Shown here: in pieces, positions 6,964 through 16,166 of the stretch
How positions within the stretch are numbered: the first letter of the stretch is position 1
Layout of the letters: each line of letters opens with the position of its first letter
Origin: Acidimicrobiales bacterium
GTDB taxonomy: Bacteria; Actinomycetota; Acidimicrobiia; Acidimicrobiales; Acidimicrobilacustridaceae
Length of the DNA stretch: 64,000 nt
Reading direction: 5' to 3'
Assembly (NCBI GenBank): GCA_041688815.1
Contig: JBDNHK010000023.1
Coordinates: 5,069 to 69,068, forward strand
The notes under the pieces: generated by a model
What the model was told of the DNA's origin: nothing
The model's input: the letters and a program-made list of their open reading frames with translations, nothing else
Database searches by the model: none
Translations under genes and position numbers: made by a program

Positions 6964-7026
6964 CCGCCGGCGCGCTCATCCGCCGTGCGGGCCGCCCACC
7001 GAACCGAGCTGGCTGATAGCGGGCCC

Positions 7027-7737
7027 TTAGGCGCCGGGGAGCTCCACGACGAACTCGGCGACGTCGATGGCCAGACCGTGGCGGAGCTGCTCGGCCACCG
7101 CCCCCCGGGTGTTGGCCCTCGTGGCCACGAAGGCCCCCTTGCGGAGGTGGCCGGCCAGGTGGGCGGCGTGGCCCACCGCTTCACTGACCACGTCCCCGAC
7201 GGGCACTACCCGGTCGAAGAACCCGGCGGCGACCGCTCCCTCGGGGTCGAAGTCCTGGGCGTGGAGGGTGGCGGCGGTGAACCACCGCTTCGACAGCCGG
7301 TCGCGCGCCAGCTCCACCGCGAAGCGGGGAAGGGGCATGCCGATGGCGACCTCGGGGAGCCCGATCTTGAACGCCCCCTCGGCGCCGATCCGGGAGTCGG
7401 CGGCGAGGAGGAGGATGGCACCCATCGCCAGGGCGTGGCCGGTGGCGCCGATCACCACGGGCTGGGGGAACTCGTAGATCTCGATGGCCAGTTCGGCTCC
7501 GGTCTTCAGCAGTTCCCGGGCGCCGTCGACCGGACCGTTCATCACGGACAGGTCGAAGCCGGCCGAGAAGCGCCCCGGGCGCCCGACCAGGGCCACGGCG
7601 CCCGCTTCGCCGCGAGCGCGGCCGAGGCCGTCGTGGATCGCTTCGGCCACCGAGTGGCTGATGGCGTTGGCTTTTTCGTCGTCGATGGTGATGACGGCGA
7701 CGTCGCCGTCGAGCACATAGGTCACGGAATCGCTCAT
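7027..7737 (-). CDS. Enoyl-CoA hydratase/crotonase family protein
   Basis: VAVITIDDEKANAI, FSAGFDL, GHALAMGA, IGLPEVAIG. Confidence 0.9.
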   Translation of the reverse strand: MSDSVTYVLDGDVAVITIDDEKANAISHSVAEAIHDGLGRARGEAGAVALVGRPGRFSAGFDLSVMNGPVDGARELLKTGAELAIEIYEFPQPVVIGATGHALAMGAILLLAADSRIGAEGAFKIGLPEVAIGMPLPRFAVELARDRLSKRWFTAATLHAQDFDPEGAVAAGFFDRVVPVGDVVSEAVGHAAHLAGHLRKGAFVATRANTRGAVAEQLRHGLAIDVAEFVVELPGA

Positions 7738-7790
7738 GCCCCTAGCATCGCAGGAATGGCGTTGCACGTCGGCCGGCGGGCGAACCGGTG

Positions 7791-8624
7791 CTACCTGACC
7801 TTGAAGGCGCCGGCCAGTTGGGCGTCGGAGAAGGCGCCGGTGTTGGGCAGCCCCACGGCGTAGCGGTACAGGGCGGCACGAAAGATGCCGGTGAGGGCCG
7901 ACACGATGGCGATGGCCACCGCGACGTAGATGAACAGCAGGGGCAGGCCGACGATCGGGAGGCCGGCGGCGGTGACGGCCCCGAACACGACGACGCCGGG
8001 GAGGATGATCAGGACACCGAGCAGGCCCAGCCCGCCCTGGGCGATCAGGTTCTCTCCCCACGTGGATTTGAGCAGGTGGACCGACCGCTTGATACCGGCC
8101 ACCGGTCCGGTGCCCTCGATGACGATCGCCGGAAGGGTCAGCCAGGTGACGACGTTCCAGGCCATCCCCACCACGCGCAGGACGATGGCACCGAGGGGCC
8201 CGGTCCGGTCGGCGATGGCCTGCAGGACCAGCCCCACGGTGACGTTGATGGCGGCCCAACCGATGATCGGCGTGAAGCAGGACCAGGCCCGGCGGGCGGC
8301 GGTGGACAGCGTGGGGTGGCCGCCCTCGAGCCGCTCGTTGGCCCCGGCGATCAGGACACCGGTGAAGAACTGGGCCACGATGCCGACGAACATCAATCCG
8401 ACGACCCCGACGGCGTAGGAGACCGGTGACGCCTGCACCGCGTCCTGGCCCGGCACCGGGTCGGACACGATGGTGAGGGTGGTGTAGACGGCGCCACCGA
8501 AGGCCACGGCCACGACGCTGCACGCCACCGCCGAGACGACCGGGATGGCCGCGAGCTCCTTGTCCTGGCGCAGGACGTTCCATGACTCTTTGCCGAGGGT
8601 CAGGCTGTTCGCGAATCGTCCCAT
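7791..8624 (-). CDS. Multi-pass membrane protein (DUF6159-like)
   Basis: N-terminal SW.VLRQDKEL, several TM helices, S..LLK.TWGE, C-terminal IFRAALYRYA; family name from memory. Confidence 0.7.
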   Translation of the reverse strand: MGRFANSLTLGKESWNVLRQDKELAAIPVVSAVACSVVAVAFGGAVYTTLTIVSDPVPGQDAVQASPVSYAVGVVGLMFVGIVAQFFTGVLIAGANERLEGGHPTLSTAARRAWSCFTPIIGWAAINVTVGLVLQAIADRTGPLGAIVLRVVGMAWNVVTWLTLPAIVIEGTGPVAGIKRSVHLLKSTWGENLIAQGGLGLLGVLIILPGVVVFGAVTAAGLPIVGLPLLFIYVAVAIAIVSALTGIFRAALYRYAVGLPNTGAFSDAQLAGAFKVR

Positions 8625-8736
8625 CTCGAAACCATAACGCCCCGGCCCGGTACGGTCATGGGACGGTCAGATCATTTCCCGAAGGCTCCGGTCCTGTCCC
8701 CGGGGGGCGTCCCAGGGCGTGCCTAGGGTGACGGGC

Positions 8737-10128
8737 ATGGACGACTCAGGGGGACAGTGGCCGCCTGAAGGACGGGTCATCGGCACCTTGGACGCCACGC
8801 CCCTCGGGTTCTGGGTGGCGGTGGCCGACGGGTCGTTTCTCGAGCTCGACGACGTCGTGGCCTGCGAGCGGGTGCTCCCCGACGGTAGGGCGGTTCGCAT
8901 CTCGGGGGTGGTGGGCCAGGTTCGGGCCCGACACGAGGGCGCTCGTTTCGACAGCGACGTCTTCCTGGTGGCCGACGGGGTGCTGCCGGCCGAGGTGGGC
9001 GAGGCCGCCATGGTGCAGACCACCCGCTTCGAACCCGAGATCTTCGTCCCCCCGCTCCCGGGCACGGCCGTGGCCAAGGCCACCGGCACCGATCGCGACC
9101 ATGCCCTGTTCTTCGACGGCATGGATCGGATGCTGCCGGCGGGGCTGTCGCGTGACGACGAGCCCTTCTTCGTCAACGTCGACTTCCTCGACGGCACCCG
9201 GGGTGCGCACGTCAACATCAGCGGTATCTCCGCTGTGGCCACCAAGACCACCTACGCCACGTTCCTGTTCGCCGACTCCGAGGACGACCGGGCCCAGTAC
9301 ACGCTCGTCGTCCACAACGTCGCCGCTCGCCTGGCCCACGACGCCGTTGCGATGGGCGACGGCGCGGTGCGCATCGACGCCACGGTGGTGCGCACCTTCC
9401 GTGAGCTGGTCGAGGTCATCCACGCCAAGCTCGACGACGACCTCGAGGTCGAGCGGTGGGCGGGTCGGGCCGTCGGGCAGGGCACCATCAACGCCTTCAT
9501 CTGCCGACTCAACGGCGCCGTGCGCCACATCGAGCACCTGGTGCGCGGCGACGTCCCCGAGCCCGATCGCCACCGCATCCGCGACGACGCCCAGGTCACG
9601 GTGGTCGACCTGCACAACCTCAACGACCGGGCCAAGCGCTTCGTCGTGGGCGTGGTGCTGCGCACGCAGTTCGAGGCCAAGGAACGGTCGGGGGTCGCCC
9701 ACCCGTTGCAGTTCGTGGTGCTCGACGAGCTCAACAAGTACGCGCCCCGCGAGGGGTGGAGCCCCATCAAGGAGATCCTCCTCGACGTGGCCGAACGGGG
9801 CCGGTCGCTCGGCATCATCCTCATCGGCGCACAACAGACGGCCAGCGAGGTCGAGCGGCGCATCGTGGCCAACTCCGCCATCCGGGTCGTGGGACGGCTC
9901 GATCCGGCCGAGGCGGCGAGAGGCGAGTACGGCTTCCTGCCGCCGGCCCAGCGCCAGCGGGCCACGATCCTCGAGCCCGGCACCATGGTCGTGGCCCAGC
10001 CCGAGCTGCCGGTGCCGCTGATGGTGCAGTTCCCGTTCCCGGCGTGGGCCACCCGAGCCAGCGAGGCCGGCGCCAACTCGTCGGCGAGCACGCAGCCCGA
10101 CGATCCCTTCGCGGGGATGCCGACGTGA
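8737..10128 (+). CDS. herA: HerA-like (FtsK/HerA superfamily) ATPase, apparently internally deleted
   Basis: N-terminal HAS-barrel-like region, AHVNISGISAVATKT Walker A region, VVLDELNKYAP Walker B, AERGRSLG arginine finger, GAQQ sensor. Confidence 0.8.
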   Translation: MDDSGGQWPPEGRVIGTLDATPLGFWVAVADGSFLELDDVVACERVLPDGRAVRISGVVGQVRARHEGARFDSDVFLVADGVLPAEVGEAAMVQTTRFEPEIFVPPLPGTAVAKATGTDRDHALFFDGMDRMLPAGLSRDDEPFFVNVDFLDGTRGAHVNISGISAVATKTTYATFLFADSEDDRAQYTLVVHNVAARLAHDAVAMGDGAVRIDATVVRTFRELVEVIHAKLDDDLEVERWAGRAVGQGTINAFICRLNGAVRHIEHLVRGDVPEPDRHRIRDDAQVTVVDLHNLNDRAKRFVVGVVLRTQFEAKERSGVAHPLQFVVLDELNKYAPREGWSPIKEILLDVAERGRSLGIILIGAQQTASEVERRIVANSAIRVVGRLDPAEAARGEYGFLPPAQRQRATILEPGTMVVAQPELPVPLMVQFPFPAWATRASEAGANSSASTQPDDPFAGMPT

Positions 10129-10144
10129 TCGTGAGCCCCGGGAG

Positions 10145-11317
10145 GTGAGGCTGCTGCACACCGCCGACTGGCACGTCGGCAAGACCGTTCGTGGGCGGTC
10201 GCGGTTCACCGAGCACGAGGCGGTGCTGGCCGATCTGGTGCGGGTGGCCGACGACGAAGCGGTCGACATGGTGCTGGTGGTCGGCGACCTCTTCGACACC
10301 GCAGCCTCGCCCCCCGAGGCCGAGCGCATCGTCTACCGCACCCTGCTCGACCTGGCCCACGATGGTCGGCCGGTCATCGTCGTGTCCGGAAACCACGACA
10401 ACCCCCGGCGGCTCGCGGCGGTGGCGCCGCTGTTCGAGCAGGCCGACGTGCGGGTGCACACCACGGTCGTGCCGCCGGACGAGGGTGGGGTCATCGCCCT
10501 CGAGGCCGGCGGCGTCCCTGTTCGCCTGGCCCTGCTGCCCTTCGTGTCGCAGCGTCACGTCGTGGGGGTCGACGAGCTCCTCGGCGCGGCCGCCGACCAG
10601 CACGCCCTCCAGTACGCCGACCGGATGCGGCGGATCCTCGAGGCGCTGGCGACGGGCTTTGCGCCCCACACCGTCAACATCGTGGTCGCCCACGCCATGG
10701 TGGTCGGCGGGGTGATGGGCGGCGGCGAGCGCAACGCCCACACGGTGTTCGAGTACGCAGTGCCCGCCACCGCCTTTCCGGCGTCGGCCCACTACGTGGC
10801 GCTGGGCCACCTGCACCGGGGGCAGAAGATCGCCGGACCCTGCCCGATCTGGTACCCGGGTTCACCGCTGGCCCTCGACTTCGGGGAGCAGCACGACGTG
10901 AAGGGCGCTCTCCTGGTGGAGGCCCTTCCTCGCACTCCGGCCCGGGTCGAACCGGTTCCGCTGTCGGGAGGGCGCGCCTTTCGGACGGTCGCGGGCACGG
11001 TGGAGCAACTGGTGGCCCAGGTGAAGCCCGGCGACGACGCCTTCGTGCGGGTGGTGGTCCGAGAGTCGGCGCGAGTGGGCCTGGCCGACGAGGTGCGCGC
11101 GCTTTTCCCCGAGGCGGTCGACATCCGGGTCGAGCCCACCGATCGCGATGCCGCGGTCCTCGACGTCGGACTCGGGGCCGAGCCCGTCACAGCCCGCGAC
11201 CAGTTCGCCGGCTATCTGTCGTCGAGAGACATCGACGACGAGCGGCTGGTGGCGCTGTTCGACGAGCTCCACGACGAAGCCGCCCCGTTCGACCCGGAGG
11301 CGATCGATGCGCCCTGA
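10145..11317 (+). CDS. sbcD: Mre11/SbcD nuclease
   Basis: HTADWHVGK, GDLFD, GNHD, AHA, LGHLH, YPGSP metallophosphoesterase motifs; GGAG RBS. Confidence 0.95.
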   Translation: MRLLHTADWHVGKTVRGRSRFTEHEAVLADLVRVADDEAVDMVLVVGDLFDTAASPPEAERIVYRTLLDLAHDGRPVIVVSGNHDNPRRLAAVAPLFEQADVRVHTTVVPPDEGGVIALEAGGVPVRLALLPFVSQRHVVGVDELLGAAADQHALQYADRMRRILEALATGFAPHTVNIVVAHAMVVGGVMGGGERNAHTVFEYAVPATAFPASAHYVALGHLHRGQKIAGPCPIWYPGSPLALDFGEQHDVKGALLVEALPRTPARVEPVPLSGGRAFRTVAGTVEQLVAQVKPGDDAFVRVVVRESARVGLADEVRALFPEAVDIRVEPTDRDAAVLDVGLGAEPVTARDQFAGYLSSRDIDDERLVALFDELHDEAAPFDPEAIDAP

Positions 11318-13706
11318 ACGGCTCGAGCTCCAGGGCTTCACCGCCTTCCGGGAGCCAGTGACGATCGATTTCGAGGGTGCGGATCTCTTCGCGTTGTCTG
11401 GCCCCACCGGTGCCGGGAAGTCGAGCATCATCGACGCCATCTGCTTCGTCCTCTACGGCGTGGTGCCCCGCTACGACGATCGCCGCCTGGTGGCTCCCGT
11501 CATCAGCCAGGGCCGGGTGGAGGCGCGGGTCGGTCTCGACTTCGCGGTGGCTGACGCCCACTACCGCGCCGTGCGGGTGGTGCGGGCCACGGCCACCGGG
11601 GCCACCACCAAGGAGGCCCGCCTGGTCCGCTGCCTCCCCGACGGCGAGGAGGTGTTGGCGGGTACGGCCGATGAGCTCACCGAAGCCGTCACGCGCCTGC
11701 TCGGGCTCACCTACGAGCACTTCACCACCTGCGTGGTGCTGCCACAGGGCGACTTCGCTCAGTTCCTGCAGGCCAAGCCGAAGGAGCGCCAGAAGCTGCT
11801 CGTCGAGTTGCTCGACCTCGGGTTGTACGAGCGGATCCGGGTCCTGGCCCGCACTCGCGAGGCTTTGGCTGACGGCGCCCGGGCCGAGGTCGAGCACCAG
11901 CTCGCCGACGCACGCGTCCTCGCCGATCCAGAGGTGTCGATAGCGCTCGGTGCTCGCATCTCGGCGCTCGACGAGCTGGTCGAGCGCATCGACCTCGACC
12001 AGGAGCGCCTCGACGAGCTGCGAGCGGTCGTCGACCTCGAGACCGCCACCGCCCGACAGACCACGGGCGAGGCGGAGCGCCTCGGCGCAGTGGCCCGGCC
12101 CGATGGTGTGGACGACCTCGCCGTCGCCTTGATTGCCGCACGTGACGAGCTCGTGGCCGCCAACACCGGCGACGATGCGGCCGCCGCGGCTCTCGAAGCA
12201 GTCGAGACGATGCTCTCCGAGCTGCCGTCATCAGCCGAGCTCGCCGCCGTCGGTCAGGCTCAGACCGATCTCGCCCAGCAACGGGAGCGTCAGGTCAAGG
12301 GGGAGACAATGGTCGGCGATCGGGCCGACGCCGTGCGCGGGGCTCGCGCCGCCACGGCCGGGGCCGAGGCGGCAGTGGTCGCCGCTGAGTCGGCTCTCGA
12401 CATCGCTCGGCGGGACGCTCTCGTCGCCGAGGTCTCGTCGGAGCTGGAGCGCGGCGACACCTGTCCGGTGTGTGGCGCCGAGGTCGACGAGCTGGCCGTG
12501 CATCCGGACGGCGACGCACTGGTCGACGCCCGCCGCCACCTCGACGACGTGAAGAGCGTCCAAGAGGACGCTCGCACGGCGTGGGCCCGCGCCGAGAGCG
12601 AACTGACCCGCCTCGAGGAGAAGCTGGCCGAGGTGGTGGCGGCAGTGAACCGGCTCACTGCTGAGCTGGAGGGAGTGCCACCGATCGAGGTCCTCGACGC
12701 CAGGAGGGCCGAGGTCGCCGCGGTCACCGGCGCTGTCGACGCCGCCAAGCAAGCGGTGAAGGACGGTCGGATCCGACGTCGTGCCGCCGAGGCCGCGGAA
12801 CGGGCGGCGTCCGGGGCCGAACAGCACGCCCGGGTGGCTTTCGAGACAGAGCGTGACCAGGTGGCGGTGCTCGGTCCGCCGTCGCCGGGCCGGGTCGACC
12901 TCGCGACCGACTGGGACAACTTCGTGGCCTGGGCGGCCGGCGAGCGGCCGGCCCGACTCGAACGGGTCCGGATCGCTTCGGCCGCGACCCGCACTGCGGC
13001 TGCGGAGGCCGAGGCCATCCACGCGGCGGTGGTGGCGGCGTGCGCCGAGGCCGGTGTCGAGATCGGCGACCGGGTGGCCCGAGATGCGCTGGTCGATCAG
13101 CGGGCTGGGCTGGTGGCCGACCGCGACCGTCGCCACGAGGCGGCCGCCACCCTGGTCGGGCTCGAGACCGGCCACGCGTCGCGCGCCCAGGATCAGCAGG
13201 TCGCTCACGAGCTGGCTCGCCATCTCTCGGCCAACGGTTTCGAGAAGTGGGTGCTCGATGCCGCCCTGAGGCATCTGGTGGCGGGGGCGACCGGTGTGCT
13301 GCATGCCCTGTCCAACGGCACCTACTCGCTCACCCTCGACCCCAAGACCTCCAACTTCTGGGTGATCGACCACGCCAATGCCGACGCCGTGCGTTCGGCC
13401 CGCACCCTCTCGGGTGGCGAGACCTTCCTCGCCTCGCTGGCCCTGGCGTTGGCTCTCGCCGACGAGGTCGCCCATCTGGGTGTCGGTGGGGCCACCCGCC
13501 TCGAGTCGATGTTCCTCGACGAGGGGTTCGGCACCCTCGATGCCGACACCCTCGACACCGTGGCCGGCGCCCTCGAGGACCTCGGAGCCCAGGGCCGCAC
13601 GGTGGGCCTGGTCACCCACGTGGCCGAGCTGGCCGAGCGGATGCCGGTGCGCTTCGCCGTCACGAAGACCGTGTCGGGCTCGTCCGTCGAGCGGATCGAC
13701 CGGTAG
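11307..13706 (+). CDS. sbcC: Rad50/SbcC SMC-like ATPase
   Basis: GPTGAGKSS, LPQGDFA Q-loop, CPVC zinc hook, LSGGE signature, FLDEGFG, VTH; overlaps sbcD by 11 nt. Confidence 0.95.
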   Translation: MRPERLELQGFTAFREPVTIDFEGADLFALSGPTGAGKSSIIDAICFVLYGVVPRYDDRRLVAPVISQGRVEARVGLDFAVADAHYRAVRVVRATATGATTKEARLVRCLPDGEEVLAGTADELTEAVTRLLGLTYEHFTTCVVLPQGDFAQFLQAKPKERQKLLVELLDLGLYERIRVLARTREALADGARAEVEHQLADARVLADPEVSIALGARISALDELVERIDLDQERLDELRAVVDLETATARQTTGEAERLGAVARPDGVDDLAVALIAARDELVAANTGDDAAAAALEAVETMLSELPSSAELAAVGQAQTDLAQQRERQVKGETMVGDRADAVRGARAATAGAEAAVVAAESALDIARRDALVAEVSSELERGDTCPVCGAEVDELAVHPDGDALVDARRHLDDVKSVQEDARTAWARAESELTRLEEKLAEVVAAVNRLTAELEGVPPIEVLDARRAEVAAVTGAVDAAKQAVKDGRIRRRAAEAAERAASGAEQHARVAFETERDQVAVLGPPSPGRVDLATDWDNFVAWAAGERPARLERVRIASAATRTAAAEAEAIHAAVVAACAEAGVEIGDRVARDALVDQRAGLVADRDRRHEAAATLVGLETGHASRAQDQQVAHELARHLSANGFEKWVLDAALRHLVAGATGVLHALSNGTYSLTLDPKTSNFWVIDHANADAVRSARTLSGGETFLASLALALALADEVAHLGVGGATRLESMFLDEGFGTLDADTLDTVAGALEDLGAQGRTVGLVTHVAELAERMPVRFAVTKTVSGSSVERIDR

Positions 13707-13718
13707 GGGTCGGGGCCG

Positions 13719-14407
13719 ATGCGGTTCGCCGTCGAGTCGTGGTCACCAGAGTACGGCAGTCCCACCGAGTCGATGGGGCTCACCGGCAGCTCGGGCCCGG
13801 TCGATCCGTGGGTCGAGTCCGATGTCGGGGACTGGGCGCCACGGGTCCCTGATCCCGCCGCTGAGCCGTTCGCCTCGGTGGCCTTCGTCGACGGCGTGCG
13901 TCGGGTCGAGGCCAACGTCTTCATCACCGGGACCGATGGTCCCTTGCGACTGGGCCTGCACCGCCCCGGATTCATCGGCTACGTGAAGACCCACCATGCC
14001 GCCTACGGGCCTCCCCTCGTGCGTGACATCGTCACCAGACTGGGATGCGGCGAACGCACTCCGCTCCTGCTGCTCGGCGGTCCCGTTCCCCGCTTCAGCT
14101 GATACCTGCGTCTTCCTTGTTCGGTGGCCCACGGGTGGGACGGCATCGTGCGCCTCGAAGCGGCCGCCGACACTGCCGTCGCCGCAGCCGTGGTGCTCGC
14201 GGACCGGGTGGCGTGCACCCTGGCGCGTTTTGCGTCGGTCCCGCACAAGGATCCCGTGCCCCGCAGAACCTCGTACCCATCGGTGGTCTCGAACGAGACC
14301 TGCGCCACCGTCTCGGTGACCCTCAGCTCCTGTTGCGATCCCTTCGCCTCGCCGCCGTGACCACGCCCAGGGAAGGCCCGGGTCCGGCCGGTAGCGTGCC
14401 GACGTGA
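13719..14407 (+). pseudogene. nurA: NurA-like nuclease with premature stop, frameshift and probable internal deletion
   Basis: AFVDGVRR, DGPL, GYVKTH, L..GERTP, RFS*YLRLP (TGA 14100-14102), frameshift near 14256 before APQNLVPIGGLERDLRHRLGD. Confidence 0.75.
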
Positions 14408-15360
14408 CCGATGCCGCCATCGAAACCACCGCCCTGCGCCGATCCTTCGGCGACCTCGAGGCCGTCGCCGGCGTCGACCTCTCGGTGGCCCGGGGCGAGA
14501 TCTACGGCTTCCTAGGCCCCAACGGCGCCGGGAAGTCCACGATGGTGAGGATCCTGTGCACCCTCATCACCCCCACGTCGGGTTCGGCGATCGTGGCCGG
14601 GCACGACGTGGTCACCGACCCCACCGGTGTCCGCCTCCGGATCGGCGCGGCGTTGCAGGGCACGGCCATCGATCCGAAGCTCACTGGGCGCGAGACCTTG
14701 CTCTTGCAGGGCCGCTACTACGGCATGAGCAAGGACGCCATCGCCGCTCGGATGGCCGAGGTCCTGACCCTGGTCGACATCGGTGACGCCATCGACCGTC
14801 GGGTGGGCACCTACTCGGGGGGCATGGGCCGCCGCCTCGATCTGGCCACCTCGCTCATGCACCGTCCCGAGGTGCTGTTCCTCGACGAGCCCACCACGGG
14901 GCTCGACCCGGCCAGCCGCACCCGGGTGTGGGAAGAGGTCCGCCGACTCAACACCGAGCTGGGCATGACCATCTTCCTCACCACCCAGTACCTCGAGGAG
15001 GCCGACGAACTGGCCGATCGGGTGGGGATCATCAACGAGGGCCGCATCGTGGCCGAAGGCCCCCCCGACGAGCTCAAGCGGGGGATCGGCAACGACGTGA
15101 TCGTCGTCCGGGTGACCTCGCACGACGGGGCCGAGACCGCTCGCGCCGTGGTGGCCGCGCTGCCAGGTGTGGCGTCGGTCGAGGTGCGGGGCGACTCGCT
15201 GGTGGTCTCCGCCCCCGACGGCGCGGCCACGGTGTCACCGGTTGCCGTTGCCCTCAATGGCTGCGGCGTCGGGGTGGTCGACCTGATGTTGCGCACTCCG
15301 ACGCTCGATGACGTGTTCCTCGAACTGACCGGCGCCCACATCCAGGGAGATGACCAATGA
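14404..15360 (+). CDS. ABC transporter ATP-binding protein (DrrA-like)
   Basis: GPNGAGKS, YSGGM, LFLDEPTTGLD, LTTQYLEEAD. Confidence 0.95.
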   Translation: MTDAAIETTALRRSFGDLEAVAGVDLSVARGEIYGFLGPNGAGKSTMVRILCTLITPTSGSAIVAGHDVVTDPTGVRLRIGAALQGTAIDPKLTGRETLLLQGRYYGMSKDAIAARMAEVLTLVDIGDAIDRRVGTYSGGMGRRLDLATSLMHRPEVLFLDEPTTGLDPASRTRVWEEVRRLNTELGMTIFLTTQYLEEADELADRVGIINEGRIVAEGPPDELKRGIGNDVIVVRVTSHDGAETARAVVAALPGVASVEVRGDSLVVSAPDGAATVSPVAVALNGCGVGVVDLMLRTPTLDDVFLELTGAHIQGDDQ

Positions 15361-16166
15361 CCGCCGTCAACGCTCCCGCCGACGCAGAGCGCCTCGCCCA
15401 GCCGGCCGGGTTCATGCACGACCTCACGTCGGTGGCCATCCGGGCGCTCAAGCTCATCCCGCGCGACCCCGCCGGCGTCATCCCGGCGCTGGTGGTGCCG
15501 TTGTTCTTCTTCGTGGTGAACGTGGGCTCACTGCAGAACGTGGCCGAGGGCGCCTCACCGGGCTTCGACTTCAAGGCGTTCCAGTTGCCGGTGGCCATCG
15601 TGTTCGCCGTCACCGGGGTCTCTCGAGCCTCGAACCTGGTGACCGACATCCAGGACGGCTACTTCGACCGTCTCCTCATGACCCCGATGAGCCGGGTCGC
15701 CCTCCTGCTCGGGTTGATGGTCGCCGACTTCGCCCTGGTGATCGCGTTGTGCATCCCGGTCGTCCTCCTGGGCCTGGCGGTGGGTGTCGACGTGGCCACC
15801 GGACCTCTGGGCCTGCTCTTGTTCCTGTTGCTCGCCGGCGCCTGGGGTGTGGCCTTCACCGGCTTCCCCTACGCCATCGCCCTGAAGACCGGCAGCCCGG
15901 CCGCCGTGAACTCCAGTTTCATCTTGTTCTTCCCGTTCGCGTTCCTCACCACCGCCTTCCTTCCCCAGGAGGCGCTCACGGGATGGCTCTCGTCGATCGC
16001 CGACTACAACCCCGTCACCTACCTGCTCGCCGGGCTGCGCTCCTTGTTGATGGAAGGGTGGGCCGGCTCGTCGTTGCTGAAGGCCGCGCTGGCGATCGCC
16101 GTGGTGGGGGCGGTGAGCTTCACGTTGGCCTTCACCGCGCTACGCGGGCGGGTGCGGCGGGGCTGA
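15357..16166 (+). CDS. ABC-2 type permease (DrrB-like)
   Basis: Six-TM pattern, DGYFDRLLMTP, YNPVTY; ATGA overlap with the ATPase. Confidence 0.92.
   Translation: MTAVNAPADAERLAQPAGFMHDLTSVAIRALKLIPRDPAGVIPALVVPLFFFVVNVGSLQNVAEGASPGFDFKAFQLPVAIVFAVTGVSRASNLVTDIQDGYFDRLLMTPMSRVALLLGLMVADFALVIALCIPVVLLGLAVGVDVATGPLGLLLFLLLAGAWGVAFTGFPYAIALKTGSPAAVNSSFILFFPFAFLTTAFLPQEALTGWLSSIADYNPVTYLLAGLRSLLMEGWAGSSLLKAALAIAVVGAVSFTLAFTALRGRVRRG

Follow-up and report, generated by a model that had tools for sequence, protein, structure and literature searches.

Probable recent inactivation of a bacterial-type herA-sbcD-sbcC-nurA end-processing operon in a Rhabdothermincola-like Acidimicrobiales genome

The window analysed here, a 64,000-nucleotide (nt) stretch of a genome assembly from an Acidimicrobiales bacterium (GCA_041688815.1, contig JBDNHK010000023.1, positions 5,069 to 69,068 of the forward strand), contains four co-oriented plus-strand units that correspond to the DNA end-processing genes herA, sbcD, sbcC and nurA. 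An initial annotation, made from the sequence alone, had described these units as a complete operon of archaeal type that might serve a separate repair pathway or the processing of foreign DNA. Its coordinates, co-orientation and gaps between the units (16, −11 and 12 nt) were all confirmed from the window sequence and the list of open reading frames (ORFs), its gene order herA-sbcD-sbcC-nurA was correct, and so, at the family level, were the identities of the products as HerA, SbcD, SbcC and NurA homologues. Comparison with relatives revealed, however, that only the two inner genes are intact, while the first and the last carry lesions (Table 1).

The first unit was aligned with the HerA protein of Deinococcus radiodurans (DrHerA, PDB chain 7f6d_B) at an E value of 6e-116, in two blocks that connect residues 5-184 of the query to residues 2-183 of the chain and residues 223-450 to residues 368-601. 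Intact HerA orthologues comprise 566 amino acids (aa) and match DrHerA over their full length (E 1e-142). The gap in the window gene follows directly after KTTYATFL and amounts to exactly 100 codons, all of which are kept by every relative examined, and the short sequence CGTTCCT(G/T), inside which the junction lies, is present twice, 300 nt apart, in intact herA alleles. The missing segment includes an NVKGED stretch that aligns with E219/D220 of DrHerA. In the solved structure, the ASCE catalytic acid is D220, which sits at the C-terminal end of strand beta2, and a helix-bundle insertion is placed directly after this strand (PMC9960219). Mapped onto the published topology of DrHerA, which it fits cleanly, the deletion takes out strand beta2 together with its catalytic acid, the greater part of helix alpha1 and the beginning of the helix-bundle domain. 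A second change affects the P-loop, which reads GISAVATKT in the window as opposed to GISGVATKT in the relatives, the Lys and Thr being kept and the invariant Gly being replaced by Ala. The Walker B motif (VVLDELNKYAP) and the N-terminal HAS barrel are kept. A search of the window's genome yielded neither a second herA nor a second nurA.

The fourth unit was recognised via its orthologues, using tblastn and DNA alignments to relatives. Since its length is not a multiple of three, it cannot be one open gene, and the ORF list splits it into a frame of 127 codons that stops at 14102 and another that extends to 14407. Three lesions were located in it. The largest is an in-frame deletion of 94 codons (residues ~75-168 of 323), which fuses the stretch immediately following motif I to the motif II DG and leaves FVDGVRR of motif I in place (motif definitions from PMC13748450). 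Downstream of this junction, a Trp codon within the stretch RFSWYLRLP has become a stop codon, and behind a shortened run of C the conserved C-terminal NurA motif (RAPQNLVPIGGLER) resumes in another frame. The corresponding intact protein of Rhabdothermincola salaria (308 aa), which is named NurA by NCBI, matched the Pfam family NurA (PF09376) with 27.9 bits at a cut-off of 21, the D. radiodurans NurA chain 7f6d_H with E 3e-23 and the Thermotoga protein TM1739 with E 0.002.

Both inner genes have retained the motifs expected of a working nuclease complex. In SbcD, the phosphoesterase motifs I-III are all present (DWH, GDLFD and GNHD). SbcC exceeded the Pfam cut-offs for AAA_23 and SbcC_Walker_B and scored 281 bits with TIGR00618, under the cut-off of 478.5 for that model, and it features GPTGAGKS, a CPVC zinc hook, SGGE, MFLDE and the H-loop. 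With all catalytic motifs kept, SbcCD may continue to function and work alone in this organism.

Of the profile matches that had been expected for the four products, those of SbcD and SbcC were thus obtained, whereas the first and fourth units remained unmatched in Pfam and NCBIfam: neither a HerA/DUF87 match for the window HerA nor any match for the nurA fragments was found, even at E 10. As the intact R. salaria HerA orthologue was also without a Pfam match, these profiles are not diagnostic for this HerA clade, and both units were therefore identified via the solved D. radiodurans proteins and the intact orthologues.

Table 1 Features of the herA-sbcD-sbcC-nurA locus and its flanks, in window coordinates.
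Feature	Coordinates	Strand	Description
herA remnant	8737..10128	+	open frame of 463 codons; homologue of D. radiodurans HerA without 100 internal codons
GCT (Ala) codon in the Walker A loop	9232..9234	+	Gly in all relatives and in DrHerA
junction of the 300-nt in-frame herA deletion	9260..9267	+	inside CGTTCCT(G/T) microhomology; by comparison with contigs L104 and L107
sbcD	10145..11317	+	intact, 390 aa; TIGR00619 with 175 bits (cut-off 77.65), Metallophos
sbcC	11307..13706	+	intact frame, 799 aa; start overlaps sbcD by 11 nt
nurA pseudogene	13719..14407	+	689 nt; counterpart of the 323-aa NurA of the intact sister
junction of the 282-nt in-frame nurA deletion	13934..13941	+	CGATGG(T/C)C microhomology; from alignment with L107
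TGA nonsense codon	14100..14102	+	TGG (Trp) in L107 and all other relatives
run of three C	14253..14255	+	four C in the intact relative; −1 frameshift
TAGGGT, −10-like hexamer	8724..8729	+	7 nt 5' of the herA ATG; from upstream alignments and sequence
DrrA-like ABC-transporter ATPase gene	14404-15360	+	start overlaps the nurA stop (GTGA)
ABC-2 permease gene	15357-16166	+	pairs with the DrrA-like ATPase gene; the pair spans 14404..16166

To place these lesions, we compared the window with its closest relatives. Four genomes of the same genus, collinear with the window, hold ~300 extra nt in herA and ~277 in nurA. Closer still are three contigs: L104, a Logan contig that ends inside sbcC and shows 98.6% identity along most of its length; L107, a contig of 94 kb from ENA (assembly ERZ27246977) that is 98% identical and encodes HerA, SbcD, SbcC and NurA proteins of 566, 390, 799 and 323 aa; and L118, a contig from the Joint Genome Institute (JGI) that is 99.9% identical to L107. 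Intact herA is found on all three and intact nurA on L107 and L118, at 98-98.6% nucleotide identity to the window, so that the lesions must be recent. When ~14 genes were compared between the window and L107, only herA and nurA were broken in the window. The same lesions also occur in two further JGI contigs, one of which (sample 3300007520) matches window positions 8700-14410 exactly, while the other (sample 3300007522) differs there by one single-nucleotide polymorphism (SNP). Elsewhere both contigs differ from the window, by 12-14 SNPs and 2 indels in 20 kb, which identifies them as assemblies separate from that of the window. On the strength of these alignments, the lesions are genuine and recent.

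Beyond the closest relatives, a scan in which each species was represented by one genome revealed more than 281 loci, in records almost all from Acidimicrobiia, and the best 80 of these were examined. Among them, the order herA-sbcD-sbcC-nurA on one strand was found in 51 of the 54 loci with room for it, with all gaps below 300 nt in 37 of those 51, and herA gave a single continuous match without the deletion in each of the 80 loci. In a set of 30 relatives, herA, nurA and the operon-type sbcD were found together in the same 12, whereas the remaining 18 yielded none of the three, only a distant sbcD paralogue being present in some of them. The conservation of the four genes as a unit, the lack of which would have counted against the initial annotation, is borne out both by the 51 of 54 loci and by this all-or-none distribution. 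One same-family genome contains a diverged version (L020, G011:C77:16000-19881) in which HerA is 42-49% identical and the order is nurA-herA-sbcD, with the NurA-like gene upstream, representing a second arrangement of the same parts.

A different picture emerged for the supposed archaeal character of the system. Models for archaeal Mre11 and Rad50 scored 22-81 bits on the SbcD and SbcC of the window, compared with 175-281 bits for the bacterial models, and no archaeal HerA or NurA structure was matched at E<=10 when the window HerA and the intact orthologues were searched against the PDB. Together with the Deinococcus matches of the intact HerA and NurA orthologues, these scores led to the conclusion that all four proteins are bacterial-type, and the label archaeal-type has to be abandoned. 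Within the collection of papers searched, none mentions HerA or NurA together with Acidimicrobiia.

The closest structurally characterized counterpart of the outer genes is the NurA-HerA complex of D. radiodurans (PDB 7F6D, 7WRW, 7WRX; PMC9960219), which belongs to the same families and to which the intact orthologues align over their full length. Both have a HAS barrel and a Walker B motif in HerA, whose P-loop takes the deviant form GISGVATKT, and both show the C-terminal motifs of NurA. The Deinococcus herA and nurA genes presumably form a two-gene operon apart from sbcCD, whereas here they flank sbcD-sbcC and are both inactivated in the window genome. With the herA-mre11-rad50-nurA operon of Sulfolobales and thermophilic archaea (PMC3326311, PMC13748450), the locus shares the four functions, their order and their placement on one strand, and presumably also the pairing of hexameric HerA with dimeric NurA; given that the proteins are bacterial-type here, this likeness is one of architecture and not of recent common origin. 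The intact operon of Acidimicrobiia and other Actinomycetota, for example that of R. salaria, is orthologous gene for gene (75-98% nucleotide identity) and agrees in order and spacing, the window version differing by the 100 codons missing from herA and by the 94 missing codons, the stop and the frameshift in nurA. Finally, like Escherichia coli SbcCD, the inner pair matches the SbcD and SbcC subfamily models and has kept the phosphoesterase, Walker A/B, signature and CxxC hook motifs, although SbcC is shorter here (~800 aa versus ~1050 aa in E. coli; model lengths 1043-1047). Unlike the E. coli gene, sbcC here sits between herA and nurA, and in the relatives it never occurs without these two.

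The short distance to the intact sisters, ~2% divergence with a synonymous divergence (dS) of 0.026-0.037, allowed us to ask how the genes have evolved since the lineages separated. For this, changes were placed on an unrooted three-taxon tree of the window and two sisters. In herA, the numbers of synonymous and non-synonymous changes were 9/10 on the window branch, compared with 4/0 and 4/3 on the sister branches; the corresponding values for sbcC were 13/11 versus 5/2 and 6/1, and sbcD showed 4/1 on the window branch. Between the window HerA and that of L104, ten amino-acid differences were counted after polarisation with outgroups, nine of them derived in the window, none in L104 and one ambiguous (binomial p 0.004 for 9 versus 0), and most of the derived replacements affect positions that do not vary elsewhere. 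At invariant columns, the window HerA showed 10/262 private changes, whereas its congeners showed 0/252 and 2/254 (p 0.0006); no such excess was observed for sbcD or sbcC. Both counts speak for relaxed constraint on herA. This pattern fits an inactivation part-way along a short branch, while the values for sbcC give a hint, no more, that this gene may be relaxing as well.

As the initial annotation had referred to AdnAB/RecBCD-type resection and to ku/ligD, other end-processing genes in the genome were also considered, with a mixed outcome. An intact operon encoding RecC (1153 aa), RecB (1218 aa) and RecD (704 aa) is located on G000:C134 (L112:430-9298), while neither RecJ (TIGR00644) nor an AdnAB-sized PD-(D/E)XK protein was found in the window's genome. 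The ku gene is a pseudogene (G000:C110:12716-13400; L111:1716-2400) with at least two frame changes, near L111:2020-2036 and near 2293, and a 41-codon in-frame deletion. A near-identical intact Ku (P0297, 292 aa) occurs in JGI metagenomes, and ku is intact in four of four congeners. Both copies of the LigD primase-polymerase domain are fragmentary (G000:C61:1114-1536 and G000:C101:8788-9388), one covering model positions 112-253 only and the other positions 1-132 and 183-253 in two frames, and a search for the ATP-dependent ligase adenylation domain (PF01068) in the window's genome gave no match. The two congeners checked, G001 and G004, hold complete LigD copies including the ATP-ligase domain.

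Taken together, these results make it very likely, at a probability of about 0.88, that the locus is a recently inactivated copy of a bacterial-type herA-sbcD-sbcC-nurA end-processing operon that is conserved across Acidimicrobiia, here residing in a Rhabdothermincola-like genome. By analogy with the D. radiodurans complex, the HerA hexamer of intact relatives would drive double-stranded DNA into the NurA dimer, which would degrade the 5' strand, once SbcCD (Mre11/Rad50) had cleaned the DNA end; a HerA6-NurA2 complex and a role in end resection are thereby predicted for these relatives from the work on the Deinococcus and archaeal systems (PMC9960219, PMC3326311). In the lineage of the window, two microhomology-flanked deletions have hit the partner genes herA and nurA; nurA then also gained its stop and frameshift, and herA has its Gly-to-Ala change in the P-loop. 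Given the deletion of the catalytic strand of HerA and the triple lesions in nurA, the HerA-NurA motor-nuclease is probably non-functional, and resection would be left to the intact RecBCD. The description of the module as complete is thus no longer tenable, with the strand bearing the ASCE catalytic acid missing from HerA and three disabling lesions in nurA, and a separate working resection pathway is not inferable from a locus with broken herA and nurA in a genome that keeps recBCD intact.

Several observations weigh against this reading. The herA frame is open and both large deletions are in-frame, which would be compatible with a residual non-ATPase role. The ratio of non-synonymous to synonymous rates (dN/dS) on the herA branch is ~0.38 versus 0.13, at p values of only ~0.07-0.26, and in whole-gene relative-rate (Tajima-type) tests against distant congeners neither herA nor nurA was significantly accelerated, only the comparison with the 98%-identical relatives being informative for rates. 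Moreover, the three lesion-bearing assemblies may stem from related samples and are independent as assemblies, not as populations.

An origin of the deletions, stop and frameshift in assembly or binning of this metagenome-derived genome would be conceivable in view of its 136 contigs and of two congeners with a completeness of 75-77%, in which scattered frame changes in the operon resemble sequencing errors. We nevertheless consider this hardly credible: identical lesions recur in the two further, differing assemblies, the junction repeats of 6-7 nt lie far under assembler word size and are too short for collapse, the other single-base indels relative to L107 over 17 kb are all at or outside gene ends, and the genome has a completeness of 99.2%. 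A complete working module of archaeal type, acting in a separate repair or anti-foreign-DNA pathway as initially proposed, is just as difficult to uphold. Order, orientation and spacing are right for it, homologues of all four families are present and the operon is conserved in relatives, yet the stop, the frameshift and the 94-codon deletion in nurA, the loss of beta2 with its catalytic acid from HerA and the bacterial-type affinity of all four proteins speak strongly against it. Somewhat more thought is due to the idea that the shortened HerA is still functional, for instance as a scaffold of HAS barrel and C-terminal region that assists SbcCD, with only nurA being dead. In its favour, the frame is open, the deletion amounts to exactly 100 codons, and the HAS barrel, Walker B and C-terminal region are at 85-88% identity to congeners; an in-frame deletion would also avoid polar effects on sbcCD. 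However, a core strand of the RecA fold is deleted along with the catalytic acid, the invariant P-loop Gly is replaced, and the nine derived substitutions, mostly at invariant positions, have no equivalent in the sister lineage. HerA and NurA furthermore need each other for activity in D. radiodurans and in archaeal systems (PMC9960219, PMC3326311), and NurA is gone here. We thus regard a surviving function of HerA as improbable.

The decay of herA and nurA could, on the other hand, reflect a general gene erosion of this genome which is not specific to DNA-break repair, and this we treat as a serious possibility, although somewhat short of even odds. A rough census set 224 coding-like ORFs, taken from 400 kb of R. 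salaria, against the window's genome. Of the 130 with an orthologue of at least 60% identity, ~9 seem to be disrupted mid-gene, a share of ~7% that is an unverified upper bound and may include gene-structure differences between species. The flagged places comprise G000:C7:9418-10713 and ~8 others, and one of the genes shows an in-frame gap of ~94 residues similar to those in herA and nurA. By this count, the genome may have a considerable number of pseudogenes. A map of coding potential based on GC content at third codon positions (GC3) was also prepared for the window and proved too crude for counting pseudogenes. General erosion is less easily reconciled with the choice of genes affected: herA, nurA, ku and both LigD polymerase-domain copies are broken and no ATP-ligase domain was found, recB, recC, recD, sbcC and sbcD are all intact, and herA and nurA stand alone as the broken ones among the ~14 genes compared with L107. 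A concentration of lesions in end-processing genes is hence suggestive rather than proven. The more far-reaching proposal that one Rhabdothermincola population recently dismantled both HerA-NurA and Ku-LigD while keeping RecBCD and SbcCD remains tentative, and we would at present rather doubt it. A ~98%-identical sister population, recovered in a JGI metagenome whose record number is a neighbouring one, has at least its operon unbroken. Were the loss selective, this pair of populations would constitute a natural near-isogenic experiment on the function of herA-sbcD-sbcC-nurA, and the microhomology-flanked deletions could be traces left by the remaining repair pathways.

Recent inactivation of the operon, which we prefer, also has consequences for annotation practice. 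A reading at the level of ORFs would score this genome as having a complete HerA-SbcCD-NurA system, and wrongly so; pathway inventories of uncultured Acidimicrobiia consequently need checks at the level of individual lesions. That HerA and NurA are broken with SbcCD intact between them would provide natural genetic support for HerA and NurA as an obligate pair, and the pair would appear to be dispensable when RecBCD is present. The actinobacterial herA-sbcD-sbcC-nurA operon is widespread but uncharacterised, and the intact sister alleles make its function testable by direct comparison. As such the operon is ordinary; the new element is its decay, and its modest interest is that of a knock-out that arose naturally, can be dated and is accompanied by an intact sister lineage.

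Upstream of the operon, the −10-like hexamer TAGGGT is kept in four congeners and is identical in the intact sister L107. Its close proximity to the herA ATG suggests a leaderless transcript, with the hexamer as a putative promoter element. A generic sigma-70 and terminator scan revealed neither a promoter nor a terminator for the operon, and strict patterns for the mycobacterial LexA box and RecA-NDp were absent upstream of herA. A relaxed motif, TGTC-N4-N7-9-TAnnnT, is enriched, being found within 150 nt 5' of this gene at 39 of 79 Acidimicrobiia loci, compared with a background of 0.6% in random 160-nt windows; we take it to resemble the RecA-independent (PafBC-type) damage promoter of mycobacteria and other actinobacteria. 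In the species of the window, CGTC replaces TGTC in this region (8700-8736), as it does in the intact sister. Decay of the promoter in the window was considered and dropped, since the intact sister carries the same C as first base and its upstream region is identical.

Directly downstream, the pair of ATP-binding cassette (ABC) transporter genes was initially considered as an insertion at the operon end. This was rejected, as L107 shows the same arrangement behind its intact nurA, and the pair is thus native to the species.

On the other side of herA, a 518-codon minus-strand ORF (7027-8583) was resolved into two genes by means of the gene calls on the near-identical JGI contigs, GC3 and the upstream alignment. 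One encodes an enoyl-CoA hydratase (~7027-7737). The other (7791-8624), for a DUF6159 protein, is divergent from herA, with a spacer of 112 nt between them. In this region L107 holds ~3 kb extra relative to the window, with genes for a PAS histidine kinase and a response regulator with an EAL domain, located between the deacetylase and enoyl-CoA hydratase genes (window site 7008-7029). The same contig is without ~297 nt of the DUF6159 gene (window site 8049-8346), the product of which has 168 aa compared with 277 aa in the window. Indels of ~0.3-3 kb are frequent between these 98%-identical lineages.

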